From NCBI RefSeq assembly GCF_008000775.2, contig NZ_CP042905.2:2850001-2882000 (forward strand): a stretch of 32,000 nucleotides of DNA, written 5' to 3'. Position 1 is the first letter of the stretch. Every line of letters starts with the position of its first letter. Origin of the DNA: Promethearchaeum syntrophicum (GTDB lineage: Archaea > Asgardarchaeota > Lokiarchaeia > Sigyniarchaeales > Promethearchaeaceae). Below the pieces are notes generated by a model. It had not been told where the DNA came from. It did not search any database and saw only the letters and a program-made list of their open reading frames with translations. The position numbers and the translations under genes are program-made. Shown in pieces: positions 4,529 through 28,827 of the stretch.

Positions 4529-4831
4529 TTGAAAATAACAAATAATCTTTTGACTCAAATTTATTCTGCTCACAGATATTCTTCTTTAACCCCGGGATTT
4601 TCTTCACTTACATTAAAAAATAATAAAGTCGTATCGTTCTTTTCTGGGTTGGGAGAAAAATATGTCGAAGTTGAGAATTATGTCGTCGCTTTACTACTTC
4701 GTCGTGATGAAAGTGTAGCAACATACCGCGCGATTTTAAATAAAATTGCAGCGAATATTTTAGGAAATATTGAAAATAATAAATACAAAAAACTAATTCC
4801 AAGACTTTACCAGGATTTAGCTAGAATTTAA
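4529..4831 (+). CDS. Small longin/roadblock-like alpha/beta protein; start uncertain because the frame is open from 4448
   Basis: The track ORF starts at a TTG. The same frame is open back to 4448 and encodes HYIPVGILVLRWDNEIGPVLITSFPEN. That stretch matches the N-terminus of the 24174 protein (LILVQWNVKTGPLNLVQFPPE). There is no in-frame ATG, GTG or TTG in 4448-4528. Confidence 0.6.
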   Translation: MKITNNLLTQIYSAHRYSSLTPGFSSLTLKNNKVVSFFSGLGEKYVEVENYVVALLLRRDESVATYRAILNKIAANILGNIENNKYKKLIPRLYQDLARI

Positions 4832-5037
4832 GCAAAATTAGAAGAGATTTGTTTAAAAATATTTTTTTTCATTCCATTTTAATATAGTTTTTATTAATTG
4901 TAATTCTTAAAAGTTCACACACTTCTCATTCCGAAATTTCAATAGGTGCTCGTTAGGAAATATCCGAAATATTTTTATTTTTTCATAAGTTTATTAAGAC
5001 GGATTAGAAAGCAATTTTATACAAAATTCAAATCCAT

Positions 5038-6267: not shown

Positions 6268-7209
6268 TTAACTGTAGTCGATCATTTTTTCGATACTTAG
6301 TAAGGCTTTTTGTGCAATATGAGATGGAACTTTGACTTGAAATTGTTCCTCTTCTGGAGTTCCAATAGATTTAAGAGTAGTATAAATTTTTTCTAAGGTA
6401 ATTTTTTTCATATTTTCACAAAGCGATTTGGGATTAAGGGGAAAAAATTTTTTGGAAGGATTTTTCCAAATTAAATGATCCATTAATCCAATTTCAGTTC
6501 CGATTATATATCCAGCATCATTTTCATGCTCATGTACATAATTAAGCATACCAGATGTAGATCCAATGTAATCCGCCATTTGTTGCACTTCTGGAGGGGC
6601 TTCAGGATGAACTAAAAGTATAGCATTTGGATGAGTATTTTTAGCATTAACTACATCCATTTTGGTGAAAAGGTTATGGCGCGGGCAATTTCCAAGACCA
6701 GGAATCGATATGACCTTTAAATCGGTCCTATCTCTAACATAAGATGCAAGATTTTTATCAGGTCCAAATAAAATTGTGTCGGTATTATGTTCTTCAGCTA
6801 TTTTTTGTGAAATTTTAATTGCATTTGAAGATGTGCAGCAGATATCTGTATGAGCTTTTGTTTCTGCAGTCGTATTTACATATACCACAACTGGAATATC
6901 AGGATATTGGATTTTATATTTCTCAATATCGTCCCCCGATAAAAAATTCGCTAACGGACATCCCGCAGATTTATCAGGAGAAAGAATGGTTTTTGCAGGA
7001 TTTAATACAGATGCCGTTTCCGCCATAAATAAGACTCCTGCAAATAGAATATAGTCTGTGTCAACTTCATTTTTAGCGATCTTAGAAAGACCTAGAGAAT
7101 CTCCAATTCTATCGGCAATTTTATGAACTCCCAAAGGTGTATAATAATGTGCCAGAATTGTTACACCCTTTTCAGTTTTTAAAGCCGAGATTTTTTCTGA
7201 AATATCCAT
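6268..7209 (-). CDS. nadA: Quinolinate synthase
   Basis: 313 aa. It has the family-typical blocks ILAHYY, GDSLGLS, FAGVLFMAETASVLNP and CPLANF, plus conserved Cys positions (C..TSSNA, GNCPRHN). Confidence 0.9.
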   Translation of the reverse strand: MDISEKISALKTEKGVTILAHYYTPLGVHKIADRIGDSLGLSKIAKNEVDTDYILFAGVLFMAETASVLNPAKTILSPDKSAGCPLANFLSGDDIEKYKIQYPDIPVVVYVNTTAETKAHTDICCTSSNAIKISQKIAEEHNTDTILFGPDKNLASYVRDRTDLKVISIPGLGNCPRHNLFTKMDVVNAKNTHPNAILLVHPEAPPEVQQMADYIGSTSGMLNYVHEHENDAGYIIGTEIGLMDHLIWKNPSKKFFPLNPKSLCENMKKITLEKIYTTLKSIGTPEEEQFQVKVPSHIAQKALLSIEKMIDYS

Positions 7210-8396: not shown

Positions 8397-10775
8397 TTAA
8401 AAATCAGAGTGTTCGGTTCTTTTAATAATTTCTTCTTGTAGATCTGTTCCTAAATTTACAAAATAATCACTATAACCTGCAACTCTAACGATTAAATTGC
8501 GATATTGATCCGGATTACTTTGAGCAGCACGTAATGTTTCGGCAGAGACCACGTTGAATTGAATATGATGGCCATCCATTTTAAAGTAGGCTCTAATCAA
8601 ATGGGATAGTTTATCAATATTTGTGGTATCTTTTAAAAATTGAGGAGTGAATTTCTGATTTAGAAGAGTTCCACCTGTTCTCAAATGGTCAATTTTTGCA
8701 GCGGATTTTATCACTGCAGTTGGTCCATTAGTATCCATGCCTTGAACGGGACTTATTCCTTCAGAAAGAGGGGTTTGAGCTTTCCGACCATCAGGGGTAG
8801 CACCTACAACAGAACCAAAATAAATATGAACGGTCGTAGGGAGTAAATTGATCTTATGAGTCCCATTTCTAGTGTTTGGTCTACCATCAACGGCTTTAAA
8901 TACAATATCGAAAACCTTTGTTAGTAGATCATCTACATAATCATCATCATTTCCATATTTTGGAGTTTTCTTAGTTAAATTCTCATGTATCTGCTCATTT
9001 CCCTTAAAATTAGCTGATAGAAGATCCAACAATTTATCCCAAGAAAGAGATTTTTTATCATAAATATGATACTTAATGGAAGCAAGAGAATCGGTAATCG
9101 ATCCCATCCCTACAATTTGTATGTAACTTGTGTTATACTTTGCCCCACCATCATTATAATCCTTTCCTTTCAAAATGCAATCATCTATTATAATGGACAT
9201 AAACACTGCGGGTAAATTTTGGGCCCAAAGACGTTCAATCATTACATTACCTTTAATTTTTATATCAATGAAATAATTTACCTGTTTTTCAAAGGCTGCG
9301 AGAAATTCTTGAAAAGTGATAAAACTACGGGGATCTCCTGTTTCCAAACCAATTTTTTTTCCCGTTCGAGGATCAATCCCATTATTTAATGCAATTTCTA
9401 GAATTTTAACTAAATTAAAATATCCAGTGAGAATATATGCTTCTTTTCCAAAGGCTCCCACCTCAACACATCCACTTGCACCGCCGTTTCGAGCGTCAAT
9501 AATATTCTTTCCTTGTCTTGTCAATTCTTGAATAATTGCATCTGTGTTAAAAATGGAAGGTTGGCCAAACCCAGTTTTAATTATTTCTAAAGCGCGTTTT
9601 AAAAAGCGATCAGGTGTTTGTTTGCTTATTTGAACATTTGAACTTGGTTGGAGTATTCTCATCTCTTCAATAACATCTAGTAAAATGTATGAAAGCGGAT
9701 TAACAGCATTACTTCCATCTTCCTTTAATCCGCCGATATTTATATTACAGAAATCTGTGTATGTATTAGATTCAGCGGCAGTTACTCCCACTTTAGGCGG
9801 AGCAGGTTGATTATTAAATTTCACCCAGAATGCTTCTAGCAATTCTTTTGCTTGATCTTCATTTAATCGCCCTTCATCAAGATCTTTTTGATAAAAAGGA
9901 TATAGGTGCTGGTCTAGCCTTCCAGGATTGAATGAATCCCAAGTATTGAATTCCATTATTACCCCAAGATGAATAAACCAATAATGCTGTAGCGCTTCCC
10001 ACATTGTGCGGGGCGCATGGGCGGGAATGTAATCACACATTTCAACAATCTTTTGCAATTCCTTTTTTCGCATTTCAGATTTTTCGATTTCAGCTAATTG
10101 CTTAGCTTTTTCAGAGTGGCGTTTTGCATACAAAATAATTGCATCTACTGCAATATCCATAGCCTGTAACTCTTCCCGCTTATTGAATGCACCAGGATCA
10201 TTGTAAAAATCGAGATTGGAGATACTCTCTTGAATTTCTTGCTTAAATTCTAAAAATCCTTTAGTAAATATTTGTTTCCCTGCTACTGTATGACCCGGGG
10301 CACGTTGTTCCATGAACTCAGTAAAAATCCCCGCTTTATATGCATCAATCCAATTATTATCAACTTGGTCAAATATTTTTTCTCGAATAGATCTATTATT
10401 CCAAAAAGGGATTAAGACTTTTCGCGTGTATTCCTTATCCTCATCAGATACCTTAAATGAAATTTTATCGCGATTGTTCAAAATCTCTAAATCTTTTAAA
10501 CTATGACAGCATATTTCGGGATAAGTGGGAGTTGCTTTCGGTTCTGGTCCCCTTTCACCAACAATAAGTTCACCAGGATTTATACAAATTACCTTTTTTT
10601 CCAAGAAATATTTAAACGCTAGAGCTCGTGTTATTGGAACGGAATATCTCTGAGATGCATCAGTTTTATAGAATTCTGTCATTAATCTTGCGCGTTCTAA
10701 AGATAGATAAGGAGTTGCAGTTCTACTTTGAGTTCTTAGTGTTTTTATTCGTTCATTCATGAAATTACCCTCCAA
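8397..10775 (-). CDS. Glycyl-radical enzyme, PFL2 / glycerol-dehydratase-like (GCVE) class; substrate unknown
   Basis: 792 aa. The C-terminal glycyl-radical signature is LIVRVAGYSDYF. The catalytic Cys loop is GGASGCVEVGAFGKE, i.e. the single-Cys GCVE type rather than the CC of true PflB. Its start overlaps the activase stop by 11 nt. Confidence 0.9.
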   Translation of the reverse strand: MEGNFMNERIKTLRTQSRTATPYLSLERARLMTEFYKTDASQRYSVPITRALAFKYFLEKKVICINPGELIVGERGPEPKATPTYPEICCHSLKDLEILNNRDKISFKVSDEDKEYTRKVLIPFWNNRSIREKIFDQVDNNWIDAYKAGIFTEFMEQRAPGHTVAGKQIFTKGFLEFKQEIQESISNLDFYNDPGAFNKREELQAMDIAVDAIILYAKRHSEKAKQLAEIEKSEMRKKELQKIVEMCDYIPAHAPRTMWEALQHYWFIHLGVIMEFNTWDSFNPGRLDQHLYPFYQKDLDEGRLNEDQAKELLEAFWVKFNNQPAPPKVGVTAAESNTYTDFCNINIGGLKEDGSNAVNPLSYILLDVIEEMRILQPSSNVQISKQTPDRFLKRALEIIKTGFGQPSIFNTDAIIQELTRQGKNIIDARNGGASGCVEVGAFGKEAYILTGYFNLVKILEIALNNGIDPRTGKKIGLETGDPRSFITFQEFLAAFEKQVNYFIDIKIKGNVMIERLWAQNLPAVFMSIIIDDCILKGKDYNDGGAKYNTSYIQIVGMGSITDSLASIKYHIYDKKSLSWDKLLDLLSANFKGNEQIHENLTKKTPKYGNDDDYVDDLLTKVFDIVFKAVDGRPNTRNGTHKINLLPTTVHIYFGSVVGATPDGRKAQTPLSEGISPVQGMDTNGPTAVIKSAAKIDHLRTGGTLLNQKFTPQFLKDTTNIDKLSHLIRAYFKMDGHHIQFNVVSAETLRAAQSNPDQYRNLIVRVAGYSDYFVNLGTDLQEEIIKRTEHSDF

Positions 10776-11574
10776 TTTTTACAGGAATATTTATTGAGTC
10801 AAATTTTAATTTTATTTTTTCCATTTGTTCATGGGAAGGTTCATTAAAATCTTCCATGAGATAAGGCAAATTTAGTTTAATGTATTTATTTTTACCAATT
10901 TTGTGAAAAGGTAAAAGATCGATACCTTGAATATTTTTTAGATTTGAAATGAAGTAGCGTATTTTATTTAACTCATCGCTATCATCGTTTATCCCTGGAA
11001 TAATCGGAATCCTGATAATGATCTTACTTCCATTTTCAGACAGTTTTATTAAATTATTTAATATTTGCTGATTGGGAACTCCCGTAAATTTCTCATGTTT
11101 CTCGCTGTCATGAAATTTCAAATCGTATAGGAATAAATCGACATACTCTTTAATATTATTTATTATATCTTCTGTGGTATAACCAGAAGTATCTAAAACT
11201 GTATGGATCTTATTAATCCGACATAATTTTAATAAAGAGAGGAGAAATTCGGGTTGACTTAGGGGTTCTCCCCCAGAAAAAGTAACCCCACCCCCAGACT
11301 CATCATAAAATATTATATCCTTTTCAACTTCTTTAAAAACTTCTTTAACTGTCAGATTTTTCCCAATAATCTTGAAATTATCTCGTCCATTATCTTCGTT
11401 TTTCGGATTTATGAACTGCTCGAGTTTAAAATTCTGGCTTTCAGGATTATGACACCACCAGCATGTTAACGGGCAACCTTTGAAAAAAACTGTGGTTCTT
11501 ATACCCGGGCCATCATGAACTGCAAACTTCTTGATATCAAATATTATTCCCGAATTTCCAATCCGCAAATCCAT
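10765..11574 (-). CDS. Glycyl-radical enzyme activating enzyme (radical SAM)
   Basis: 269 aa. It has the N-terminal FAVHDGPGIRTTVFFKGCPLTCWWCHNPE (CX3CX2C) and the SAM-binding GGVTFSGGEP. There are only four Cys in total, so no auxiliary ferredoxin-like cluster motifs. Confidence 0.9.
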   Translation of the reverse strand: MDLRIGNSGIIFDIKKFAVHDGPGIRTTVFFKGCPLTCWWCHNPESQNFKLEQFINPKNEDNGRDNFKIIGKNLTVKEVFKEVEKDIIFYDESGGGVTFSGGEPLSQPEFLLSLLKLCRINKIHTVLDTSGYTTEDIINNIKEYVDLFLYDLKFHDSEKHEKFTGVPNQQILNNLIKLSENGSKIIIRIPIIPGINDDSDELNKIRYFISNLKNIQGIDLLPFHKIGKNKYIKLNLPYLMEDFNEPSHEQMEKIKLKFDSINIPVKIGG

Positions 11575-15244: not shown

Positions 15245-17392
15245 ATGTTACTTGAAGTAATTTTAGAAGTATGGACTTTATGGTTTGTCCTCGCAGCTGC
15301 TATTGCAAGTTTTATTGTTGCGTTCATCTTAAAAAAAAGAGTAGATGTGGCAGATCCCGGCAATGAAGAAATGGTTAAAGTTCAAGGATATATCAGAGAC
15401 GGCGCAAGCACGTTTATAAAACGTCAATATATAACCTTAGCTTATTTCGTTGGAGGGTTAGCAATAATAATTGCACTAGTGTACTGGGGTAATATCAGGG
15501 TTCCATGGTATTTGATGGTGATTTCCTACCTCGCAGGATCAGGCGCTTCAGCTTGGGCAGGATGGTTAGGAATGAAAGTAGGTGTTGATGCTAATGCAAA
15601 AACAGCACAAGCATCCACTAAAGGACTCGCACCAGCGTTTAATGTTTCATTCTTTGCAGGTGCAGTTATGGGATTAATTGTGGTCGGAGCCGCCCTCGGT
15701 GGTGTCTGGCTATTATATTTCGTCTTTGGAGATCCATTGGTAATCTTAGGATTTTCTTTCGGTGCTTCTTCAATTGCACTGTTTGCTAAAGCGGGAGGAG
15801 GTATTTATACTAAAACCGCGGATGTTGCAGCTGATTTAGTCGGAAAAGTTGAATACTCATTGCCCGAAGATGATCCACGAAATCCAGCCTCAATCGCTGA
15901 TAATGTTGGAGATAATGTCGGAGATATTGCAGGGATGGGTGCAGATTTATTTGACTCATATGTGGCTTCCATATTAGGTGCAATGTTACTCGCATTTTCA
16001 TGGATAGGAGCAAGAGGTTATACTACTACTGATATCAATCTTATGACTTCTTTCCCACTAGTAATCAGTGCTGCTGGATTAATTGCATCGATTCTCGGTA
16101 TCTTCATTATCGGAAAAATGGGTAAATCTACACCAGGTAAAGCTCTAAACTTGGGGACTTATATTGCTACTCTTATTTTCATCGCAGTCGGAGCCTTATT
16201 TACGTTCTTCATGACTTTGACAGAAGGAGTTAGTGAAGATATTAAATCACAATTATGGAGAAATCTATGGGCCGGTGTATTCGGTGTCGCTAGTGGGCTT
16301 GTAATCGGTTTAACAACAGATTATTTCACCAATGATGAAAAACGACCAACTCAATTAACCGCTGAATCATCAGAACAAGGTCATGCTTTAAATATCTTAA
16401 CTGGCTTTTCATATGGCTTGCTAAGTGTTGCTCCTCCTATTATTGGAATTGTAATTGCAATGGGTGTTGCTTATTGGTTGGATGGATTAATCGGTGTTGC
16501 AAATGCTTCAACTGGAATGTTGGCAATTGTTGGAACTATCGTTTCTAATGATGCTTTTGGACCTATTGTTGATAATGCTCGTGGAATCGCAGAACAAGGC
16601 GGTCTATCCGAAAAAGAAATTGCACTGTGTGACAGGTTAGACTCAGCAGGAAATACAGCCAAAGCCATTACTAAAGGGTTCGCAATTGGTGCCGCCGCTT
16701 TAACAGTACTTGCTTTACTCTACGCATTTATGGAAGAAGCTAAACACAACCCAGATATCGCCCAAGCATTAAAAGATATGGAAACAATCAGTCTTGATTT
16801 AATGACACCAGCAGTTATGATTTCTGCCCTTCTTGGAACTGCAGTCCCGATGGTTTATTCAGCAGTCTTGATTATGGCAGTTGATAAAAACGCACAAGTC
16901 ATGGTTAAGGAAATTCGACGCCAATTTGAAGAAAATCCAGCCATCCTGAAGGGAACTGAACCCGCAGACTTTGAAAAATGCATTGATATCGCAACCAAAG
17001 GTTCTTTGAAAGAATTAATCGTTCCAATCTTGCTATCCGTCGTATCACCATTAGTTGTCGGAGTTCTGTTCGGTGTTCAAGGTTTAGGTGCTTTCCTCGC
17101 ATCAACTATCTTAATTGGATTTGTCTTTGCACTATTACTCTCCAACTCAGGGGGAATGTGGGATAACGCTAAAAAATACATAGAAGATGGACATCTTGGC
17201 GGAAAAGGAACATTTGCTCACGCTGCAGCCGTTACCGGCGACACAGTAGGAGATCCATTTAAAGATACAGCGGGTCCTTCAATCAACACTTTAATAACCG
17301 TGATGTCTTTAACAGCATCAATGTTCTTATCTCTGTTTATGTTGGATATTTTCAACAATGGACAGGGATTACTGATGAATCTATTTGTTTAA
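15245..17392 (+). CDS. hppA: Membrane-bound H+-translocating inorganic pyrophosphatase, K+-independent type
   Basis: 715 aa and polytopic. Family motifs present: GGGIYTKTADVAADLVGKVE, DNVGDNVGDIAGMGADLF, DNAKKYIE, GDTVGDPFKDTAGPS. The GNTAKAITKG block carries the Lys and Thr diagnostic of K+-independent enzymes. Confidence 0.95.
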   Translation: MLLEVILEVWTLWFVLAAAIASFIVAFILKKRVDVADPGNEEMVKVQGYIRDGASTFIKRQYITLAYFVGGLAIIIALVYWGNIRVPWYLMVISYLAGSGASAWAGWLGMKVGVDANAKTAQASTKGLAPAFNVSFFAGAVMGLIVVGAALGGVWLLYFVFGDPLVILGFSFGASSIALFAKAGGGIYTKTADVAADLVGKVEYSLPEDDPRNPASIADNVGDNVGDIAGMGADLFDSYVASILGAMLLAFSWIGARGYTTTDINLMTSFPLVISAAGLIASILGIFIIGKMGKSTPGKALNLGTYIATLIFIAVGALFTFFMTLTEGVSEDIKSQLWRNLWAGVFGVASGLVIGLTTDYFTNDEKRPTQLTAESSEQGHALNILTGFSYGLLSVAPPIIGIVIAMGVAYWLDGLIGVANASTGMLAIVGTIVSNDAFGPIVDNARGIAEQGGLSEKEIALCDRLDSAGNTAKAITKGFAIGAAALTVLALLYAFMEEAKHNPDIAQALKDMETISLDLMTPAVMISALLGTAVPMVYSAVLIMAVDKNAQVMVKEIRRQFEENPAILKGTEPADFEKCIDIATKGSLKELIVPILLSVVSPLVVGVLFGVQGLGAFLASTILIGFVFALLLSNSGGMWDNAKKYIEDGHLGGKGTFAHAAAVTGDTVGDPFKDTAGPSINTLITVMSLTASMFLSLFMLDIFNNGQGLLMNLFV

Positions 17393-20263: not shown

Positions 20264-21997
20264 ATGAAAAACAAACAGTTATACAAAATATCAAAGTATG
20301 CCTATAAAGAAGCATTTTTAGAAAGCCAATTGGAAATGGCAGGAGTAAACCAAGCACAAATTCTCGAAAAAATGGAAAAGAATGCAAAATATATGCGTAC
20401 TCAAGATATAGCAATGAAAATTGTAGTTATGATATATCTTGCATCAATGGTTATTTTACCTGTTCAAGTGTTTGGGCTATTGAATAATACAATTGGGAGA
20501 GGAATACCTGCCCAATGGGCAATTTTTGCAGGTGGAATTTCCTTTAGTATCTTTTTTGCGATTCAGCTAATGTTTTTACTCACATTTGGAGTATATATTT
20601 CATCAGGATTTTTTTCGGGAGAAGAGTTCAAATGGTTATCAACATTACCGCTATCCAAAAAAGAGCTTCATAAGGTAACATTATTTACATTTTTCCGAAC
20701 AGTAGATGCTCAATTTTTTGCTTTAACTCTTGGATTTCCTATTGCTACGTTTTTTGCTACAAAAAACATTCTTATTACTTTCATCAGTCTCATCGTATCT
20801 TTATTGAATATGGTTTTTTCGATTGGGATTCTCGCTGTATTAGGTGAAAAATTACATAGAATAATGAAAAACTCAGATGTAACCTCGAAAAAGGCTTCAT
20901 TAATTCGGGTTTCTGTAATGGTTGGATATGCTGTCTTGACAATAGGGATTGCTTTAAGTTTTAATTTAATAGTTCCTAAAATTGAACCATTTTTTTTGAA
21001 TTATCCTACAAATTTAGATCCATATGAATTTGTAAACAAATTTATTGGAATTATACCCTATCCTTTCAGCGGGGGTTTTTTAATATCAAATTTATATATT
21101 AATTCTCAAGATGTCCCTTTCGCCCAATATTTTACTCCAATTTTAGGAATTATTTTACTAATTATTATAAATCTCCGGTTTTATCGAACTGTAATGAAAA
21201 AGATGAATAATCTTATTTTTAAAAAAACAGGACGATTACAGGATGAGGAAAAACTAAAAATAACCGAAATTAAAGACATAAAACTAATAACCGTAAAACC
21301 TATGAACGCTTTTTTCAAGAGAGATAAAAAAATGGCATCTAGGGATGTCCAAGTTATTATGATGATTGTGATGCCCATTTTATTACCATTCGTTAGTTTT
21401 GCATCCTTGGCGATCGGAGCTGAAGAAATAGGGAAAGATTTCGATATGGTTATTATGTTGATGAATCTCTCATATTGGATGATGAGCGGTGTTATAATAA
21501 TTGTCACTTTACTCAATATTGAAAGTTCTGGTGCAACAATAACTCAAGCGTTACCAATTAATCCTCGAGATCAAGCAATTGCAAAAATTAAATGGCTCTT
21601 GATCATTCTACCAATATCTTCATTTATTTCCCTTGTTCCATTTATTGGAAAAGAAGCTTTCGTAAAAAATTTTATTTATATCCTAATTACAATGAGTCTT
21701 GGACCTTTAACGGGAATTCTCACTTTATTATTACGCGTAAGGTTCTTTGGAAAATTGAAAAATAAATATGTTATGGGAGAAATAAATCTTGGAGCGAAAA
21801 TCTGGAAATGGGTGTTAATTGTTATTGTTGACATTATATTATATATTGTAATAGCAGCGGGATTTGGAATTATTCTATTAACTTATAATTTAGCAATTCT
21901 TTCACTAGTGTTTATTGTAGGCGAAGTAGTAATTCTTTTTATACTTAGTTTTTTTTTCAATCGAATGTTTCCGAAAAAACAAGTTCAAAAAATTTAA
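20264..21997 (+). CDS. Large polytopic membrane protein, putative permease partner of the ABC ATPase
   Basis: 577 aa with many hydrophobic segments. It starts 36 nt downstream of the ATPase on the same strand. No conserved permease motif was recognised. Confidence 0.6.
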   Translation: MKNKQLYKISKYAYKEAFLESQLEMAGVNQAQILEKMEKNAKYMRTQDIAMKIVVMIYLASMVILPVQVFGLLNNTIGRGIPAQWAIFAGGISFSIFFAIQLMFLLTFGVYISSGFFSGEEFKWLSTLPLSKKELHKVTLFTFFRTVDAQFFALTLGFPIATFFATKNILITFISLIVSLLNMVFSIGILAVLGEKLHRIMKNSDVTSKKASLIRVSVMVGYAVLTIGIALSFNLIVPKIEPFFLNYPTNLDPYEFVNKFIGIIPYPFSGGFLISNLYINSQDVPFAQYFTPILGIILLIIINLRFYRTVMKKMNNLIFKKTGRLQDEEKLKITEIKDIKLITVKPMNAFFKRDKKMASRDVQVIMMIVMPILLPFVSFASLAIGAEEIGKDFDMVIMLMNLSYWMMSGVIIIVTLLNIESSGATITQALPINPRDQAIAKIKWLLIILPISSFISLVPFIGKEAFVKNFIYILITMSLGPLTGILTLLLRVRFFGKLKNKYVMGEINLGAKIWKWVLIVIVDIILYIVIAAGFGIILLTYNLAILSLVFIVGEVVILFILSFFFNRMFPKKQVQKI

Positions 21998-22001
21998 ATT
22001 G
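21987..22001 (+). promoter_or_regulatory. Archaeal BRE/TATA promoter of ncRNA copy 1
   Basis: AAAAAATTTAAATTG. The TATA octamer TTTAAATT (21993-22000) ends 22 nt before the first base of the RNA closing stem (22023), so its centre is at about -26/-27. The block is identical to the one upstream of copy 2. It overlaps the stop codon of the upstream membrane-protein gene. Confidence 0.6.
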
Positions 22002-22022: not shown

Positions 22023-22170
22023 AATCCCTGGCGTTTCTCTTAATTGAGGAAGCTGCAGTGAGACACTGCAGTGGAATACTAAGGAATTCATATTACAATA
22101 CTGATCCATACATGGCGTCTGGATAAGTTTCCGATCGGAGATCGGAAAAATGCTGTAGTTTGCAGGGATT
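22023..22170 (+). ncRNA. Unclassified structured ncRNA, tandem copy 1
   Basis: The closing stem pairs AATCCCTG (22023-22030) with CAGGGATT (22163-22170). A perfect 8-bp hairpin is CTGCAGTG-AGA-CACTGCAG (22053-22071). An imperfect hairpin is TGATCCATAC-ATGGC-GTCTGGATAA. A 9-bp hairpin is TTTCCGATC-GGA-GATCGGAAA (22128-22148). A promoter lies upstream and a T5 run downstream. Confidence 0.6.
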
Positions 22171-22174
22171 ATAC

Positions 22175-22179
22175 TTTTT
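22175..22179 (+). terminator. Oligo-T terminator of ncRNA copy 1
   Basis: A TTTTT run lies 4 nt after the closing stem. Its context (ATTATAC-TTTTT-CC) is conserved with copy 2. Confidence 0.5.
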
Positions 22180-22240
22180 CCATAGCTTTTAATTCTAAAG
22201 AAATTACCAAACTAGTCATAGATCTTTAGTATTTCATACT

Positions 22241-22254
22241 AAAAATTTAAATTG
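22241..22254 (+). promoter_or_regulatory. Archaeal BRE/TATA promoter of ncRNA copy 2
   Basis: AAAAATTTAAATTG is identical to the copy-1 block. TTTAAATT (22246-22253) again ends exactly 22 nt before the RNA start at 22276. Confidence 0.6.
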
Positions 22255-22275
22255 ATAAAATTAAATATAAACTTG

Positions 22276-22425
22276 AATCCCTGGAGTTTCTCTTAATTGA
22301 GGAAGCTGCAGTGAGACACTGCAGTTGAATACGAAGGAATCTATATTACAATACTCATCCATACATGGCGTATGGATGACTTTTTCACACTTTGTGCGAA
22401 AAACATGCTGTAGTTGGCAGGGATT
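22276..22425 (+). ncRNA. Unclassified structured ncRNA, tandem copy 2
   Basis: The architecture matches copy 1. The closing stem pairs 22276-22283 with 22418-22425. The CTGCAGTG-AGA-CACTGCAG hairpin is identical. There is a perfect 10-bp hairpin, TCATCCATAC-ATGGC-GTATGGATGA (22354-22378). The last hairpin is replaced by TTTTTCACAC-TTT-GTGCGAAAAA (22381-22403). The RNA ends 20 nt from the RT stop codon on the opposite strand. Confidence 0.6.
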
Positions 22426-22428
22426 ATA

Positions 22429-22435
22429 TTTTTTT
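22429..22435 (+). terminator. Oligo-T terminator of ncRNA copy 2
   Basis: A T7 run lies 3 nt after the closing stem. Confidence 0.5.
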
Positions 22436-22445
22436 CCTATTATTT

Positions 22446-24020
22446 TTATTTTCTATTTAGTTCTCTTAATTTCTGAAAGAGAAGAGAAAATTTATTTGCT
22501 TTTTCTGGATTCACCATGTGTAAATAGGCAATTTTGCCTTGAAGTTGATTGTAAATGATATCTCCTTCTTCTCCTTGGGGCAATCCAAATTTCTGGTATC
22601 GATATAACTCCCCCCTTAAAGAATTCACCCATTTTCTATCAACATTGAGCTTCTCATTCACTATGATTCCGGTAACTGCCTTTCGATTTCCTTTTCTGAA
22701 TACTTTCGTTTTTTTTAAATTTGGATACAATTTTTCATCCCGAATGATATGATAAACAGATGCAATGAATTTTCTAACTTGGATCTTTTCATTTATTGAT
22801 GAAAAAGTTAGATCATCGGCATACCTTGTATATTTCAAGCCATATTTATTCGCTAATCCATTTATTCTGACATCCATTCTTGAAGCATACAAATTACCAA
22901 TCATGGGACTGGTTGGTGCTCCTTGTGGAACAAATCTTTTTGAGTGATACCAATCAGTACATAAGCAAGCAAGTACACCAGATACTGGCCTGTTATATCC
23001 GATACCTCGAAAAACATGTAGAACATGCCAGAATTTTAATGAGGGAAAGAAATTGAGGAGATCGATTTTTATAAGAGTATTTGCCTTAAGATGAATACGA
23101 GCATTATCTACTGTAGATTTTCCAGGTACAAAACCATAACAATAATCGGGAATTTCCACTTTTTCAAGAATATCCCGTAAAATTTTTAGTTGTAGCTGTT
23201 TTAACCAATAATTCGGGTTTGAAATTAGACGTCTCTTTTTATTTGGAAATTCAATAAATTTATGAGTATAAAATGGACTTTCAAGTTCTTTGAATGATGG
23301 TATTTCAATTTCAGGTTGTTTTTTGGATTTCTTCTTTTTTTCTTCCTTTAATTCTGAGTAAGATTTTTTTATATATCTATAATCATCTGGAATAGTGTTT
23401 TGTCCAAAATTCTCAAACATTTTTTTCCGTTTTATATAATAAGCTGTCCTTTTAGTTTTTTGATTATATGAATAACCCAATAAAGCATTTACTCTAATCT
23501 TAAAATAAAGTGCAAGGTCGATTATTGAATTAAATTGTGGGATGGTATGTTCTGGTTTTAATTTGAAATGGAATTTCTTTTTGAAATGCTTTTTATCATA
23601 AACTTCTTTATTCAAGCCAGGACCGAAATATACCCGTCTTAAAAGAGGAAAAATTTCTTCAATTTGTTTTATCCTTTCATTAGGTAATTCATTTGTATGT
23701 TTGTTAATAATATTAAGCATTGAACGCTTTAGAATGGTGTTTTTTAATGATTTATCACCTGTTCTAAATTTATAATTAATTGTTTTCCTAATAGACTGTA
23801 AATATGTTTTAAAATATTCATCCGAAAGACTTTGAATGTTATAATATATTTCCTTTTCAATGCTTGGTTCATTAGATTTAATATATTTATTCCAACGATA
23901 ATCACCATGTAAATATCCGCTATATCCTAATAATTTGGCGAGACATAAACAAAAAACAAAAATCATGAAAGCGATAATAATAAGACCAGCTGCTTCTCCA
24001 GATAATCCTTCTAATAACAT
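22446..24020 (-). CDS. Reverse transcriptase, retron-like clade, with an N-terminal transmembrane segment and a long N-terminal extension
   Basis: 524 aa. RT motifs 1-3: YTHKFIEFPNKKRRLISNPNYWLKQLQLKILRDIL...GFVPGKSTVDNA...IKIDLLNFFPS. Motif 4: VPQGAPTSPMIGNLY. Motif 5: YTRYADDLTFS. Retron-type motif 7: RKAVTGIIVNEKLNV. The N-terminus has one hydrophobic helix (AAGLIIIAFMIFVFCLCLAKLLGY). About 270 aa, including a Lys-rich stretch, precede motif 1. No endonuclease or group-II maturase domain was recognised. Confidence 0.9.
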   Translation of the reverse strand: MLLEGLSGEAAGLIIIAFMIFVFCLCLAKLLGYSGYLHGDYRWNKYIKSNEPSIEKEIYYNIQSLSDEYFKTYLQSIRKTINYKFRTGDKSLKNTILKRSMLNIINKHTNELPNERIKQIEEIFPLLRRVYFGPGLNKEVYDKKHFKKKFHFKLKPEHTIPQFNSIIDLALYFKIRVNALLGYSYNQKTKRTAYYIKRKKMFENFGQNTIPDDYRYIKKSYSELKEEKKKKSKKQPEIEIPSFKELESPFYTHKFIEFPNKKRRLISNPNYWLKQLQLKILRDILEKVEIPDYCYGFVPGKSTVDNARIHLKANTLIKIDLLNFFPSLKFWHVLHVFRGIGYNRPVSGVLACLCTDWYHSKRFVPQGAPTSPMIGNLYASRMDVRINGLANKYGLKYTRYADDLTFSSINEKIQVRKFIASVYHIIRDEKLYPNLKKTKVFRKGNRKAVTGIIVNEKLNVDRKWVNSLRGELYRYQKFGLPQGEEGDIIYNQLQGKIAYLHMVNPEKANKFSLLFQKLRELNRK

Positions 24021-24173
24021 TCTTTTGTGTACTCCTTACATTTTTGATTAATAGTAATATCTTACTTATTGCACATTTTCTTAATATTTCTTTGTATCCT
24101 TTTAGAAAAATTTGTATTTGAACCTAAAGATAAATAAAAATTATTAGTCAATAATTGATTCTAGTTCAATGGA

Positions 24174-25196
24174 ATGAAAAAATTAATTCTTGTTCAATGG
24201 AATGTTAAAACGGGACCTTTAAACTTGGTTCAATTCCCGCCTGAAGAAGAAATTATTCCAAATGAATTTCTTTTAAAAATCTGGGCAAAACATGAGATGA
24301 ACTCAGATTCTAATTTCTGTTCTTTAAAAGAAGGAAAAAAATATTATTGTTCACTATTAAAAATTCACAAAATAGAAAATCAACCTTATTTTATCATATT
24401 GGAATTGGATGAAAATGATGATGTGCGAATTTTTGAGGAGATTCTAGAAAATATTGCTGAAGATTTAATCCTTAAAGTCGGTAAACCTTATTTTTCTCAT
24501 GTTTTGACAGAAACATATACAACAATTAAACATTATTCAGATTTAGATGAGTTTCAAATATTTTTAAGATTATTTGAGGATAAAAACCGCATAGATATTT
24601 TACATATTTTAAGAAAGGGAGTGATTTCTAAGCCTAAATTAGAACAGAATCTTGAAGAACAATTCGGTTATGCAAATTTAAATCTAGATTTATTACTGAC
24701 TCCTTTCATCAGATTAGGTATGATATCAGTTTTAAATGATCCAGGGAGTAATATATCATTTTATTTAACGTATGATGCTTATGCATGTCGAATACCTCCG
24801 AAACAATCCCCAAAAGTAGTTGATCTAGAACAGAAAATCATAAAATTTTTCTCAATTCCTCAAATCTTAGATGATGATTTACTTCAAGATATCGTGAAGT
24901 TACATCAGCAACCAGGTGTGAAAGAATTAAACTCGCTCTTAAGAGAAGATGTTCCAAATGGAATAGATTATGAGATTGCACTAACTACAGTTAGAAATGA
25001 TCCTACAATATTGGAGGAGCTTGAAAGATTTTCTTTTATTTATATATATGAAGAAAAACAAGTGTTTTTATTTTCTAATTTGCAATTTGTGAAATTTAAT
25101 CCTAGCTATCTTTTGCATATTTTGAAAAAACGTTATGAATCAAAGGAAATTTCTTTAGAACAATTGATTCATCAAATAGAATTTATTTCAAAATAA
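24174..25196 (+). CDS. Hypothetical protein: N-terminal longin/roadblock-like domain plus a probable winged-helix region
   Basis: 340 aa. The N-terminal ~115 aa are paralogous to the 4448-4831 product. The middle segment (NRIDILHILRKGVISKPKLEQNLEEQFGYANLNLDLLLTPFIRLGMISV) looks like a wHTH. The gene is divergent from the RT across a 153-nt spacer. Confidence 0.65.
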   Translation: MKKLILVQWNVKTGPLNLVQFPPEEEIIPNEFLLKIWAKHEMNSDSNFCSLKEGKKYYCSLLKIHKIENQPYFIILELDENDDVRIFEEILENIAEDLILKVGKPYFSHVLTETYTTIKHYSDLDEFQIFLRLFEDKNRIDILHILRKGVISKPKLEQNLEEQFGYANLNLDLLLTPFIRLGMISVLNDPGSNISFYLTYDAYACRIPPKQSPKVVDLEQKIIKFFSIPQILDDDLLQDIVKLHQQPGVKELNSLLREDVPNGIDYEIALTTVRNDPTILEELERFSFIYIYEEKQVFLFSNLQFVKFNPSYLLHILKKRYESKEISLEQLIHQIEFISK

Positions 25197-28100
25197 TTCG
25201 GGCATAGGATATACATTCTGCATTGATTAATAATTGTTTATACTTTTTCAACCGTTTTAATTGTTCAGGTAAGTCGAACTCTAAATTTTCTAAATTTCTC
25301 TCCCATCTTTCACGTTCGTTTTCAAGGTACTGAACTTCTTTCTTAATTTTATTGAAATTTTCCATCCTTTTCTTTTTTCGAGACGTATCACTTATCTTCT
25401 CTAGATTATCTATTTGCCGTTCAGTTGGCATTTTTAACTTTTTGGCTCTTAATTTTTGTTCAATTTTCTGAAGTTGAACTTCTGAAAAATTTTTTTTTTG
25501 TTCTGCTGATTTAATTATTCTTTTACGTTTTTGAAAATAGGAATCTCGATTTAATTTCGTTAATTCCTGTGTTCTTTTTTGAATCCAATTTTTAGTAGAT
25601 TTAATGGAAATATCATAACATTTCTTTAGGAAATCTTCAGATATATGAAAATCTTGTTTAGCATGAGCATAATTCTGATTTTCTGAAATAACTTCATTAA
25701 AATTGTGAGGGCGAGAGATAAAATCTGATAATGATGGAAGTAGGTCAAATTCATCAGAAATAAATACAGGAATGACAATTTTTTCGATAATAATTCCTAA
25801 AAATTTTATTTCAAATAAAAATAGGTTAAGACCTGTTTCATTTCTTAATAACTTCTGAACGATAGGAACTTCTCCAGCTTTTAAACGCACCAAGTAAGGA
25901 TTCATAAAATACGACGCTAGTTTTTTTATATCTAAGAATAGAAGGCTAGCTGACCCTCCAAAATTATCTTTTTTACACCAATCAATTAAATTCATTATTA
26001 ACGGATGGCCTAAAGCATAAAAATCGTATTCTTCTTGATCTTTAGCCAAATCAATGTTAAAAACCCCTTGATATCTTGTGTCTTCAGCTTTCATACATTT
26101 TCGATATTTTTCGGATAAATTTATATTCCAAACTCCTTTGGTTCGAGGGTTATTTTTGATTGCTAATTCAATGGGCAGTTTTTCGTATTTATTTGGGATT
26201 AATTGGTTTTTTTTCATATAATTTGAAAATCTATTGATAAATGAGAAAATATCTATTCCCGATAATAAATCGGGATTATTTATATCTTTCGAGATATAAT
26301 CATACTGAAAAGAACGTTTGTCTAATATAAGATCTTCTAACTTATCATAAATTTCATGAATTTTATTTGATGTTTTTGATATAGTTTCATCTATACGAAA
26401 TTTTCGAGGTATTTCATTATCTTTTAGAACTAGATTAGTAATTTGTCTTTCAAGTTTTCCTAAAATAGGTTCTAAAGCTCCAATAGATTCTTCAAATAAT
26501 TTAATACGATTAAGAATTGCAGTTACAATTGATGATTCAACTGTATCCTTGATGAAAAAATTATAAATTAACACATTTTTTTTTTGACCAAATCGATCAA
26601 GACGTCCAATTCTCTGTTCAAGCCTCATTGGATTCCATGGTAAATCATAATTAACAATAATATGGCAAAATTGGAAATTTCTTCCTTCGCCTCCAATTTC
26701 AGTAGATAATAAAATTGAACCTTCCTGTTTAAATGAAGATACTGATTGATTTTTTTGTTTTTCATCTAAATCTCCATGAAATTGGAAGACTTTGTAACCT
26801 TTTTTCTCGAGTAATCGGGTTAAATAAAAGAGCGTTGCTTTAAACTGTGTAAAAATGATAATTTTTTCATCAGGTGCATCATCCATTATTTCTTGAATTA
26901 TTTCAACTAAATTTTCTGCTTTAGAATCATATTGAAGGTTTTCAAGATCTTTTACAAATTCACGGAGTATTTGGATATGAGTTTTAATATTGAGATTTGT
27001 TTCCTTTTTTGGGATCATTTTACGCTGTCTATTTTTAACAATTATTCGATCTTCTAGATCCAATTCTTCCAATCCCCAAGCATAATCTAAACTTGAATCT
27101 TCATCGGTAAATTCCAGAGATTTTTTGTAATCATCTTGCAATTTTAAAAGTAGATCTTGGTTTTCTTCAAGATATTTTATCCTTTTTTTCATACTTTTTA
27201 GGATTGCAGGAACTGAGCTTGTTAACAATTTCTGTAATATTACCATAACAAAACCTAACCCAGCAGGTCCTGATTCATAATTCTGGGAATAAACTTTTGC
27301 TAGGTAAAGGTGAATTCTGTTATAAACATCCAATTCTTCCTGAGTTAATTCTACCTCAATTACATGAGGGATTCTTCTTACTGGGTTATCTGGAAAAACT
27401 ATTCTACGGCGATTTCTAATTATAAACTTGCTCAAAAAATGTTGATTTTCTAATTTTTGAATTAGAGCTTCCCTATGATGAGGAAATCTTAAGGTTTGAT
27501 CAAATCCATTTGAATCAATATTGATGTTAAATGAGGAAATCTGATATTTAAGAGCATTTCTTTCGTATGTATTTATTCGAGTAAAATTTCGCAGATTTTT
27601 GACTATTGTATTCAATAACGGTATTTTTTTCCTTTCTATTTCAAATGATTCATAGTTACTGAATTCGTAGGGATTTAATAACTGAATTAAAGAAAAGAGA
27701 TCAAAAGAATGAAGCTGAATAGGGGTTGCTGTTAATAATAGTAGACTTTTACTCTTTTCAGATAATTTTTCTGCTAATTCATATGCTAATGTTGTTCGAT
27801 ATTGCCCGGTTTTTTGATTTGTTAGATATCTTCGCAAATGATGAGCTTCATCGAAAATTACAATATCCCATTCCATCTGTGTTAAAATGGAATAACATTG
27901 ATTTAAGCGAGCATATTGCAGAGATACCGTTAATAGTGAATATTCTTTAGAGGACTTTATATGCTGTAAATTTCCTGAATTGTAGTTAATTTTCAATTTT
28001 TTGAGTAAAGCTGAGTTTAATCGAGTAAAATGAAGATTGAATTTATTTTTCATCTCAAACTCCCATTGTCCAGTAATTGAAGCAGGAGTTATGATTAGAA

Positions 28101-28827
28101 TCCGAGAGGCTAAATTTCTTGCAATCATTTCTTTTAGATAAATCCCTGCTTCAATAGTTTTTCCTAGCCCCACCTCATCTGCGAGTATATAGCGAGCGTA
28201 TCCTAATTCTAATAAACTATGGGCTACAGATATTTGATGGGGTAATAAGCTTAATCGAGAATTTGTAATTATTTTGAGTATATTGCTTTCATAAAGATCT
28301 GAAGCCTGAAACGCCCAAAATCTCAGTAAAAATTGATTTTGAGAATCAATATTTCCTTTCAAAAATTCATCGATAGGTGATTGGTATTCAGAGAGTATTT
28401 GTGTCTCTTCAAGACGCATTTTTAATCCTGAAGACGACAAAATTTCATACCTAACAATACCATCGGATTTATCAAGATTATAGGATAAAATTGTTCCGAT
28501 ATCACTTGAATATCGAATTTTTTTTCCAATATCGAAAATATAATGCAATAAATCATTTCTAAAAATTATTTTCTCATGGAATGCTTGAAATTGTACGAGA
28601 TATTTATCTAACTGAATATTAGAAATATCCTTATTTTTTTTATTTGGTAATTTTTCTAAAACATCGATAATTCGTCCGATTCCTAATCCAGGATTATTTC
28701 TAAGAACTACTAAATTTCCTATAAAAAATGAGTGGCTGCGACATTTTAAATTAGGACATATACCTTTTGAAGAAATGTCAATTGATGTTTTGCAGTATTG
28801 GCAAATTTCCGGATAAAATAAGAACAT
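25183..28827 (-). CDS. SNF2-family ATPase, RapA/HepA-like, with an N-terminal zinc ribbon and a long C-terminal extension
   Basis: 1214 aa. Zinc ribbon: CQYCKTSIDISSKGICPNLKC. Tudor-like RapA-style N-terminus: GNLVVLRNNPGLGIGRIIDV. Helicase motifs: LLPHQ, ILADEVGLGKTIEAG, FDEAHHLR, LLLTATPIQ, QRIGRLDRFGQK. About 450 C-terminal aa end in a K/E-rich coiled coil. Confidence 0.9.
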   Translation of the reverse strand: MFLFYPEICQYCKTSIDISSKGICPNLKCRSHSFFIGNLVVLRNNPGLGIGRIIDVLEKLPNKKNKDISNIQLDKYLVQFQAFHEKIIFRNDLLHYIFDIGKKIRYSSDIGTILSYNLDKSDGIVRYEILSSSGLKMRLEETQILSEYQSPIDEFLKGNIDSQNQFLLRFWAFQASDLYESNILKIITNSRLSLLPHQISVAHSLLELGYARYILADEVGLGKTIEAGIYLKEMIARNLASRILIITPASITGQWEFEMKNKFNLHFTRLNSALLKKLKINYNSGNLQHIKSSKEYSLLTVSLQYARLNQCYSILTQMEWDIVIFDEAHHLRRYLTNQKTGQYRTTLAYELAEKLSEKSKSLLLLTATPIQLHSFDLFSLIQLLNPYEFSNYESFEIERKKIPLLNTIVKNLRNFTRINTYERNALKYQISSFNINIDSNGFDQTLRFPHHREALIQKLENQHFLSKFIIRNRRRIVFPDNPVRRIPHVIEVELTQEELDVYNRIHLYLAKVYSQNYESGPAGLGFVMVILQKLLTSSVPAILKSMKKRIKYLEENQDLLLKLQDDYKKSLEFTDEDSSLDYAWGLEELDLEDRIIVKNRQRKMIPKKETNLNIKTHIQILREFVKDLENLQYDSKAENLVEIIQEIMDDAPDEKIIIFTQFKATLFYLTRLLEKKGYKVFQFHGDLDEKQKNQSVSSFKQEGSILLSTEIGGEGRNFQFCHIIVNYDLPWNPMRLEQRIGRLDRFGQKKNVLIYNFFIKDTVESSIVTAILNRIKLFEESIGALEPILGKLERQITNLVLKDNEIPRKFRIDETISKTSNKIHEIYDKLEDLILDKRSFQYDYISKDINNPDLLSGIDIFSFINRFSNYMKKNQLIPNKYEKLPIELAIKNNPRTKGVWNINLSEKYRKCMKAEDTRYQGVFNIDLAKDQEEYDFYALGHPLIMNLIDWCKKDNFGGSASLLFLDIKKLASYFMNPYLVRLKAGEVPIVQKLLRNETGLNLFLFEIKFLGIIIEKIVIPVFISDEFDLLPSLSDFISRPHNFNEVISENQNYAHAKQDFHISEDFLKKCYDISIKSTKNWIQKRTQELTKLNRDSYFQKRKRIIKSAEQKKNFSEVQLQKIEQKLRAKKLKMPTERQIDNLEKISDTSRKKKRMENFNKIKKEVQYLENERERWERNLENLEFDLPEQLKRLKKYKQLLINAECISYARIILK

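Follow-up and report, generated by a model that had tools for sequence, protein, structure and literature searches.

A retron-type reverse transcriptase and tandem, opposite-strand structured RNAs in the Asgard archaeon Promethearchaeum syntrophicum

The 32,000-nt stretch of Promethearchaeum syntrophicum DNA analyzed here (contig NZ_CP042905.2, positions 2,850,001 to 2,882,000; referred to as the window) carries on its reverse strand a retron-type reverse transcriptase (RT) gene and, just past the 3' end of that gene and on the other strand, two tandem copies of a structured noncoding RNA (ncRNA). With its relatives, the system looks like a rare Asgard RT family almost always accompanied by a novel structured RNA of retron layout that is encoded on the opposite strand and is often duplicated, and it has the look of a novel archaeal version of an antiviral system known from bacteria. 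The RT gene and its parts, in window coordinates and amino acid (aa) positions, are as follows.

22446-24020 (-): RT gene of the retron clade, 524 aa, intact; Pfam RVT_1 at 4e-21
23925-23993 (-): predicted N-terminal transmembrane helix, aa ~10-32; maximum 19-residue Kyte-Doolittle mean of 2.96
23451-23924 (-): family-specific helical N-terminal domain, aa 33-190, with FPLLRRVYFGP and IIDLAxFFxxxVNxLLGY motifs; conserved in the family alignments
23286-23450 (-): variable K/E-rich linker, aa 191-245; predicted local distance difference test score (pLDDT) of <50 in segments of 190-245
22449-23285 (-): retron RT core, aa 246-524, with NAxxH, YADD, and VTG inside
23091-23105 (-): NAxxH motif (NARIH)
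22812-22823 (-): YADD catalytic motif
22668-22676 (-): VTG motif
22399-22403 (-): first oligo-T (T5) on the RT strand past the RT stop, within the complement of RNA copy 2

The window RT belongs to the retron clade. The Pfam RVT_1 domain spans aa 260-443, and the translation of 22446-24020 contains IIDLALYFKIRVNALLGYSY, FIEFPNKKRRLISNP, YADD, AVTGIIVN, and NARIH, so that a preliminary description of the locus was right to report a retron-type RT with YADD and the other motifs that it quoted. NAxxH (region X) and VTG (region Y) are hallmarks of retron RTs (PMC7736814); both are present together with YxDD, and N306, A307, H310, Y400-D403, T450, and G451 are unchanged across 23 aligned family sequences. 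To judge by its sequence, the enzyme is catalytically intact. Retron RT models are its only best matches in PADLOC (RT_XIII is the top of 44, at 1.6e-89), and all 14 PDB sequence matches at E<=1e-5 are retron RTs, including Ec86 at 1.6e-40. Using an AlphaFold2 (AF2) model of the RT (pLDDT 76.5), the top 18 structures returned by Foldseek are all retron RTs (Ec86: TMt 0.74, 27% identity), and RT structures from group II introns, diversity-generating retroelements (DGR), and the defense-associated RTs (DRTs) DRT2 and DRT9 rank below every retron RT. The NCBIfam model retron_St85_RT scores 191 bits, which is below its cut-off of 235.

Several other assignments were tried and set aside. A group II intron RT/maturase is excluded by a score of 49 bits on TIGR04416 (cut-off of 300) and by the lack of an Rfam group II match in the window, and a DRT2-type (UG2) RT is excluded by a score of 38 bits on Drt2 (cut-off of 390) and the lack of a consistent stop-free frame in the concatenated template. 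The RT also does not appear to be a bona fide type XIII enzyme, because its RT_XIII score is about half strength and its neighbors match no accessory model: archaeal members score 290 to 312 bits over the RT core only, compared with 545 to 647 bits over the full length for bacterial type XIII RTs, and the neighbors tested at the window and six other loci include no PADLOC ARM_XIII or WHSWIM_XIII match as would be expected of HEAT/ARM or WH-SWIM partners. The full architecture is found in 22 RT homologues (40 to 92% identity), below which scores fall abruptly to bacterial retron-type RTs that match the RT core alone. The nearest homologues are annotated as Promethearchaeota, Lokiarchaeota, or Promethearchaeum, all Asgard archaea.

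The region preceding the RT core sets this family apart. A hydrophobic 19-mer (Kyte-Doolittle mean of 2.0 to 3.6) lies at aa ~5-32 in all 19 full-length homologues, flanked in each by a short acidic N-tail and basic C-side residues, and the AF2 model shows a helix at aa 8-49. By the positive-inside rule, the acidic tail and basic flank predict a single N-out/C-in membrane anchor with the RT in the cytoplasm. The preliminary description had proposed both this helix and some 270 aa ahead of the RT; the helix and the extension stand, and the length is corrected to ~260 aa before the Pfam RT domain. The helical domain is modeled at a pLDDT of 81.5 and is an orphan: a HMMER search of 1.84 billion representative proteins with aa 1-250 gave 10 matches, all to the same RT family or fragments thereof, and a Foldseek comparison of the domain with the PDB gave no fold match (best E of 3.5, TM score of <0.3). 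The linker that follows ranges from 0 to ~100 aa among homologues. The last ~60 aa of the N-terminal region (130-190) probably share ancestry with the extension that precedes the core of type XIII RTs, because P0020 aligns to RT_XIII model positions 84-423, with P0020 aa 152-220 corresponding to positions 84-155.

The two RNAs and the signals that accompany them are arranged on the forward strand as follows, with P1 denoting the closing stem and P2 and P3 the two hairpins that follow it.

21993-21999 (+): TATA-like box TTTAAAT of copy 1, ~24-30 nt 5' of the closing stem
22023-22170 (+): ncRNA copy 1, 148 nt; 119 bits on covariance model R1, E of 1.4e-16; fold z of -4.2
22023-22030 and 22163-22170 (+): P1 arms of copy 1, with candidate branching G 22031 and opposing G 22162
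22034-22051 (+): P2 hairpin of copy 1
22052-22072 (+): P3 hairpin of copy 1
22074-22075 (+): invariant GA of copy 1
~22090-22099 (+): conserved single-stranded AUAUUACAAU of copy 1
22103-22124 and 22128-22148 (+): variable hairpins of copy 1
22175-22179 (+): T5 run past copy 1, an archaeal-type terminator signal
22246-22252 (+): TATA-like box TTTAAAT of copy 2, within the portion of the 253-nt repeat unit that is conserved
22276-22425 (+): ncRNA copy 2, 150 nt; 127 bits on R1; fold z of -5.3
22276-22283 and 22418-22425 (+): P1 arms of copy 2, with candidate branching G 22284 and opposing G 22417
22287-22304 (+): P2 of copy 2
22305-22325 (+): P3 of copy 2
~22355-22379 and 22381-22403 (+): variable hairpins of copy 2, the second unlike that of copy 1
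22429-22435 (+): T7 run past copy 2, ~10 nt from the RT stop codon of the other strand

The copies are ~88% identical, with the identity reaching into the upstream ATTTAAATTG to give a repeat unit of 253 nt, and none of 200 shuffles folds as well as copy 1 or copy 2. That the RNA is duplicated and structured had been recognized in the preliminary description, and its positions for the closing stem and the adjoining unpaired Gs (22031 and 22284, opposite 22162 and 22417) are exact. A variable hairpin of copy 2 keeps its structure relative to the orthologous RNA at locus L001 through a compensatory A-U to U-A change. Searches of the window RNAs against Rfam 15 returned nothing at the gathering threshold and nothing meaningful at E<=10, and a tRNA/tmRNA search of the window found none. 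The intergenic region 5' of the RT gene (24021-24173, -) is unstructured (z of +1.19), and there is therefore no canonical upstream msr-msd, which agrees with the original reading that no co-oriented RNA precedes the RT. We note that an 11-mer, TTCTCTTAATT, which constitutes the P2 5' arm and loop of both window RNAs, has a third exact copy at 22461-22471, at the 3' coding end of the RT gene and in a small hairpin-like context. This match may be left over from an earlier copy of the RNA, or it may be chance.

Because the organism is archaeal, TATA and oligo-T signals were inspected directly; a scan for bacterial sigma-70 promoters and intrinsic terminators gave promoter-like counts not above those of shuffles and is uninformative. 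On the RT strand, the first oligo-T past the stop codon falls inside the complement of copy 2, as had been described, at 22399-22403 rather than at 22401-22405. This position suggests that the 3' end of the RT mRNA is probably antisense to ~25-45 nt of the RNA gene.

Homologues of the RNA were first located beside RT homologues by eye and with regular expressions, and were then aligned and modeled. The resulting covariance model, R1, comprises three helices (P1 to P3) and recovers 18 RNAs with scores of 44 to 132 bits. The RNA family is structured and strand defined. Standard pairs occupy 93.6% of helix cells in the 18-sequence alignment, compared with 79.7% in column shuffles and 40 to 49% with slid partners, and 15 of the 22 pairs change on both sides, which none of 500 shuffles reaches; a 12-sequence, hand-independent alignment gives a covariation picture equal to this one. 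P1 itself covaries (CCCUG/CAGGG, CCUUG/CAAGG, and CUCUG/CAGAG). There are 44 G·U cells versus 2 A·C cells, reading the RT strand instead lowers pairing to 82.8%, and the sense minimum free energy is below the antisense value in 13 of 14 RNAs; the G·U excess and better sense folding therefore place the functional RNA on the strand opposite the RT.

Family members are 137 to 217 nt long and have a constant order. From the 5' end they contain the P1 5' arm, an invariant G, one variable position (N), a second invariant G, P2, P3, another N, an invariant GA, a semiconserved single-stranded UAUUUAACAAU-like segment, the variable hairpins, G(U/A)UN, an invariant G, and the P1 3' arm. P1 has 8 to 10 bp, P2 is a hairpin of 2 to 7 bp that varies in length and sequence with full compensation, and P3 is a G·U-rich, 9-bp hairpin with a 3-nt loop. 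The 3' hairpins number one to three per RNA (8 to 25 bp) and differ freely among lineages and between tandem copies. The two opposing Gs (alignment positions G11 and G301) and the post-P3 GA are invariant in all 18 RNAs. Retron ncRNAs are characterized by a2/a1 terminal repeats, one to three short msr hairpins, one or more variable msd hairpins, and "two opposing G residues" (PMC7736814), and the archaeal RNAs have the same topology, with paired ends, conserved 5' hairpins, variable 3' hairpins, and a conserved G at the stem end. A TATA-like AT-rich box lies 27 to 35 nt 5' of the stem in all 14 copies examined, including that of the GC-rich locus L008, and a T-run lies 2 to 12 nt past the P1 3' arm in the same number (14/14); these are the putative promoters and terminators of independent archaeal small-RNA genes.

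Additional helices between P3 and the 3' tail were sought by eye in 10 sequences, none with consistent support, and a kink-turn, C/D, or H/ACA small RNA was rejected, also by eye, since the surroundings of P1 lack a bulge with a tandem G·A arrangement. Locus L253 has an additional hairpin element of 81 nt (6795-6875, -; z of -3.4) that shares the strand of the retron-like RNA, lies immediately upstream of it, and is equipped with a separate TATA-like box and T-run; the sister locus L256 shows no such element.

The RT and the RNA are obligately linked and co-diverging. We examined 16 distinct RT loci, of which 15 are testable (L254 ends 95 nt past the RT), and the covariance model places an RNA within 1.3 kb of the RT in 14 of these 15, across RT homologues of 40 to 92% identity. 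All 14 have the RNA on the strand opposite the RT, either downstream and convergent (12 loci) or upstream and divergent (L008 and L094), and in 12 loci the RNA 3' end is -3 to +84 nt from the RT stop codon. The antisense overlap suggested in the preliminary description is probable in the window, but an essential role for it is not, given the divergent arrangements in L008 and L094 and the 1.3 kb that separates the RNA from the RT, behind two genes, in L004. The two small genes in L004 (7492-8545, -; 205 aa and 85 aa, without family matches) are on the RNA strand and may be lineage-specific additions to the module. Tandem RNA pairs are present in four loci of different assemblies (the window, L065, L002, and L007), and in each pair the 5' domain is held in common and the 3' hairpins differ. 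Genomes with the RT module have a single locus each. The sole exception to the linkage is L006, whose RT (P0009, at 684-2147) has 49% identity and retains the transmembrane helix.

The reverse association was examined by scanning a degenerate 5'-domain pattern over one genome per species for 185,579 species. This yielded 84 loci, of which five are in AT-rich Promethearchaeota, all with an RT adjoining the RNA; the 79 others come from GC-rich bacteria, have neither an RT nor a covariance model match, and are due to chance. The RNA was not found (covariance model, E<=1) at 78 metagenomic loci carrying the nearest bacterial retron-like RTs, and when metagenomes were scanned with the RT profile, bacterial retron RTs made up most of the matches, with L093 and L094 the only family members. 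A viral origin is rejected, as the RNA pattern has no matches in the IMG/VR collection of viral contigs and the RT relatives there are generic retron RTs that match the RT core only. Taken together, 158 loci with bacterial or viral retron RTs are without the RNA, as judged by the covariance model for metagenomic loci and by the RNA pattern for viral ones. RT and RNA distances are correlated (Mantel r of 0.64; 0 of 5,000 permutations). The functional link between RT and RNA, offered originally as a hypothesis, thus gains comparative support. The observations named there as telling against it include RNA homologues that lack a neighboring RT, RT homologues that lack the RNA, and an RT lying firmly within a family that has a different template, and the comparison bore out none of these. 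All five real genome matches adjoin an RT, L006 is the one locus of the 15 without the RNA, and the RT is in the retron clade, with only 290 to 312 bits on RT_XIII.

The genes flanking the module differ among RT subclades, and the conserved unit is therefore the RT plus the RNA. The window and L001 have ABC/12TM and SNF2/340-aa genes as flanks, L002, L255, and L257 share a Cupin-RT-RNA-PmbA/TldD order, L005 is flanked by TPR proteins, and the remaining loci have unrelated genes. We found no partner gene conserved across loci and no PADLOC retron-accessory match among the neighbors tested (the window and six loci); the only PADLOC matches are weak ones to a 158-aa protein of L004 (Cas4_II, E of 1e-4; PDC-S02, E of 4.7e-3). 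With no effector gene conserved, the N-terminal transmembrane helix and helical domain are the likeliest candidates for an output module.

Two window genes, the 340-aa open reading frame (ORF) and the SNF2 helicase, were considered as module partners and rejected, since they are syntenic with the RT solely in L001. The 340-aa protein (24174-25196, +) has no Pfam, PADLOC, or NCBIfam match, and its gene is convergent with that of the 1,214-aa SNF2 helicase (25183-28827, -), with a 14-nt overlap. The helicase resembles the defense helicases DrmD, BrxHI, and DpdE (E of 1e-85 to 1e-97), at scores below the NCBIfam cut-offs, and the pair, instead of belonging to the module, may be a separate defense-island neighbor. 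The ATG (24174) of the 340-aa ORF, which is divergent from the RT, is spanned by a tandem pair of 28-nt direct repeats (24150-24205; 86% identical); these could have a regulatory or operator-like role or could have arisen by duplication of the start region. In L256, a WGR-domain gene fragment (4621-4839, +) without a PADLOC match is situated at the contig end, just downstream of the RT and RNA; among the type XIII accessory proteins, cluster 216_1 includes a WGR-like domain (Mestre 2020, PMC7736814). More broadly, the RT module of the window (GC content of ~30%) is surrounded by ordinary metabolic genes with no obvious mobile element, including a glycyl-radical (PFL-like) enzyme and radical-SAM activase (8397-11574, -) and a membrane H+-pyrophosphatase (15245-17392, +), with NadA and oligopeptide ABC ATPases further upstream of these.

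We consider it reasonably likely that these Promethearchaeota loci constitute an RT/ncRNA module of the retron type that has been rearranged to suit an archaeal host. Each RNA gene, encoded opposite the RT, would have a transcript of its own, a discrete RNA of ~130 to 215 nt that starts from a TATA-box promoter and stops at an oligo-T terminator. The ends of the RNA would pair as P1, the equivalent of the retron a2/a1 stem, and so set unpaired G 22031 or 22284 opposite G 22162 or 22417. The conserved 5' half (P2, P3, and GA) would serve as an msr-like handle recognized by the RT, and the variable 3' hairpins would be the msd-like template. The membrane-anchored RT would bind the RNA in trans, prime from the 2'-OH of the G past P1, and use the 3' hairpins as template for a small single-stranded DNA, which would stay joined to the RNA; tandem genes with one handle and different 3' hairpins would thereby provide two different cDNAs from one RT. 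The N-terminal transmembrane helix and helical domain fused to the RT would be the output module, which is the weakest step, and the resulting system would be a single-protein, membrane-acting one in the style of abortive infection or toxin-antitoxin systems. The tight convergent packing may add a regulatory layer. Use in trans and in tandem is plausible, because engineered "multitrons" do both, with one retron RT serving tandem ncRNAs and an msr supplied in trans (bioRxiv 10.1101/2023.07.17.549397).

Several observations weigh against this interpretation. An upstream, co-transcribed msr-msd is a retron criterion, and the RNA is on the opposite strand at every one of the 14 loci that have it. 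The RNA has no detectable homology to Rfam families or to RNAs beside the nearest bacterial RTs. The variable hairpins of the window RNAs are short, their 8 to 10 bp placing them at the bottom of the 10- to 50-bp range given for msd stems. The intact RT homologue of L006 lacks the RNA in 683 nt upstream and 5 kb downstream, as searched with the covariance model filters off, and the Mantel correlation could be explained by shared vertical descent of neighboring DNA. A single transmembrane helix and an orphan helical domain are weak evidence for an effector, as the anchor may serve another role, and there is no defense-gene context to suggest a defense function outside the window/L001 clade. Independent transcription, recognition in trans, branch-primed cDNA synthesis, the defense role, and the effector assignment are also all matters that we infer.

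A more specific proposal is that of a self-contained archaeal retron, with the N-terminal domain as effector, restrained by the multicopy single-stranded DNAs (msDNAs) of ncRNAs encoded in trans; the tandem arrays would then present several msDNA "sensors," and the antisense placement would provide regulatory coupling by interference or pairing. We regard this as possible, if rather doubtful. Outside the retron mode of action, the RT could use the RNA as a scaffold or template for a non-retron product, in the manner of unknown-group (UG)/DRT enzymes and without a 2'-5' branched msDNA. DRT2 makes concatemeric cDNA encoding a toxic protein by rolling-circle synthesis, and DRT9 and DRT3 synthesize homopolymer or repeat DNA. 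It is consistent with such a product that the RNA is an independent gene and not the 5' leader of the RT mRNA, that the closing stem joins the template ends and could favor template jumping, and that the RT departs from all of the curated retron models, being under the NCBIfam cut-off (191 versus 235 bits) and having about half the true type XIII score on RT_XIII. The RT nevertheless groups with retrons and not with UG/DRT enzymes, both on the Drt2 model (38 bits) and in structure, with DRT2 and DRT9 ranking below retron, group II, and DGR RTs. Most of 14 RNAs have no open frame across concatenated templates in either orientation, and template length and sequence vary freely even in tandem copies, which is ill suited to an encoded product, whereas a pair of invariant Gs facing each other at the end of the stem is a feature of retron priming. 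We therefore judge a DRT-like product unlikely.

The position of the RNA raises a different question, namely, whether it is not a template at all but a cis or antisense regulator of RT expression, acting by convergent transcription or by base pairing with the 3' end of the RT mRNA. The opposite orientation throughout, the proximity of the RNA 3' end to the RT stop codon in 12 loci, and the first RT-strand oligo-T of the window within the copy 2 complement all fit such a role. No overlap with the mRNA 3' end is possible, however, in L008 and L094, where the RNA is divergent and upstream, or in L004, where it is 1.3 kb away, and the RNA is fully conserved in these loci; a covarying multihelix RNA with invariant Gs and a free 3' domain is also far beyond what a regulator needs. 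Regulation of the RT as the function of the RNA accordingly strikes us as quite improbable. It is still more improbable that the RT and RNA form a selfish mobile retroelement in which the RNA is reverse transcribed and reinserted, even though neighborhoods differ among RT subclades and four loci have tandem RNA copies. There is one locus per genome with no orphan RNA copies in the genome scan, gene order is stable inside the subclades (window/L001 and L002/L255/L257), neither an endonuclease nor an integrase domain is present, and the family is not found in viral contigs. Moreover, the 253-nt duplicated unit includes the promoter, and the duplication therefore occurred at the DNA level and not by retro-insertion.

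Retrons have been described and classified as bacterial msr-msd-RT cassettes, and archaeal retron-like RTs are known as sequences only; this locus supplies an RNA partner. In the literature searched, we found no paper linking retrons with Lokiarchaeota or other Asgard archaea and no description of a retron whose ncRNA and RT are encoded on opposite strands, and a survey of Asgard defense systems (PMC11291487) does not mention retrons or RTs. The departures from described retrons are an autonomous ncRNA gene that is always antisense to the RT, natural tandem arrays with distinct template hairpins, and an RT that is predicted to be membrane anchored, bears an N-terminal orphan domain, and lacks a separate conserved effector. 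Pipelines that find retrons by seeking the ncRNA upstream and on the RT strand only have a blind spot for such systems. If the RT makes msDNA from these RNAs, then the definition of a retron broadens, an RT-based system joins the Asgard immune repertoire, and a compact RT that naturally acts in trans on a short, defined handle may be of interest for retron-based DNA-writing tools. Should the single-protein retron reading prove true, archaea would have their first retron whose ncRNA is defined, found in the lineage that is nearest to eukaryotes, and the engineered multitrons would have a counterpart in nature.

Among known systems, the type XIII retrons (clade 10: Mx162, Mx65, Sa163, and Ne144; PMC7736814) provide the best RT model for every archaeal member tested, and they share with the archaeal family a partly alignable N-terminal extension before the RT core and an ncRNA with a1/a2 ends and structured msr/msd. 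Type XIII is defined by WH-SWIM (cluster 114) and usually HEAT/ARM (cluster 216) proteins, which were not found at the archaeal loci tested, and its ncRNA is upstream in the RT transcript, whereas the archaeal RNA is on the opposite strand with a putative promoter of its own; the archaeal RT also adds a transmembrane helix and ~125 aa of orphan N-terminal sequence, and the host is an archaeon. Retron-Eco1 (Ec86, type II-A) has the closest solved RT by both sequence and fold, with NAxxH, YADD, and VTG in common, although the Ec86 RT is a soluble protein of 320 aa with a separate effector and an ncRNA that is the 5' leader of the RT mRNA. DRT2 and DRT9 are likewise two-part modules of an RT and a dedicated structured ncRNA gene, but these RTs are of other clades and their ncRNAs are co-oriented, and the archaeal RNAs have no concatemer ORF signature.

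Retrons in which the effector is fused to the RT (I-C/Eco2 RT-Toprim, XI RT-protease, XII RT-TIR, and VII-A1 RT-DUF3800; PMC7736814) resemble the archaeal system in consisting of one polypeptide and an ncRNA without a partner gene, and Eco2 is presented as a minimal single-fusion-protein retron (PMC12916289). In these retrons the extra domain is C-terminal and has a recognizable enzymatic fold, whereas that of the archaeal protein is N-terminal, predicted to be membrane anchored, and without a fold match. Coupling of a retron to a membrane-spanning output module has a parallel in Retron-Eco6 (Ec48, type IV), whose transmembrane effector causes cell death, as summarized in a preprint (bioRxiv 10.1101/2024.10.26.620412); the Ec48 effector is a separate two-transmembrane protein, whereas the single helix predicted for the archaeal system lies in the RT itself and would be at most a putative effector. 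The tandem arrangement is most similar to that of the multitrons, in which a single RT, which also tolerates RNA in trans, works with several tandem ncRNA units that have a common msr but differ in their msds. Multitrons are synthetic and are expressed as a single transcript in bacteria or yeast, whereas the archaeal units are natural, appear to have their own promoters and terminators, and are antisense to the RT.

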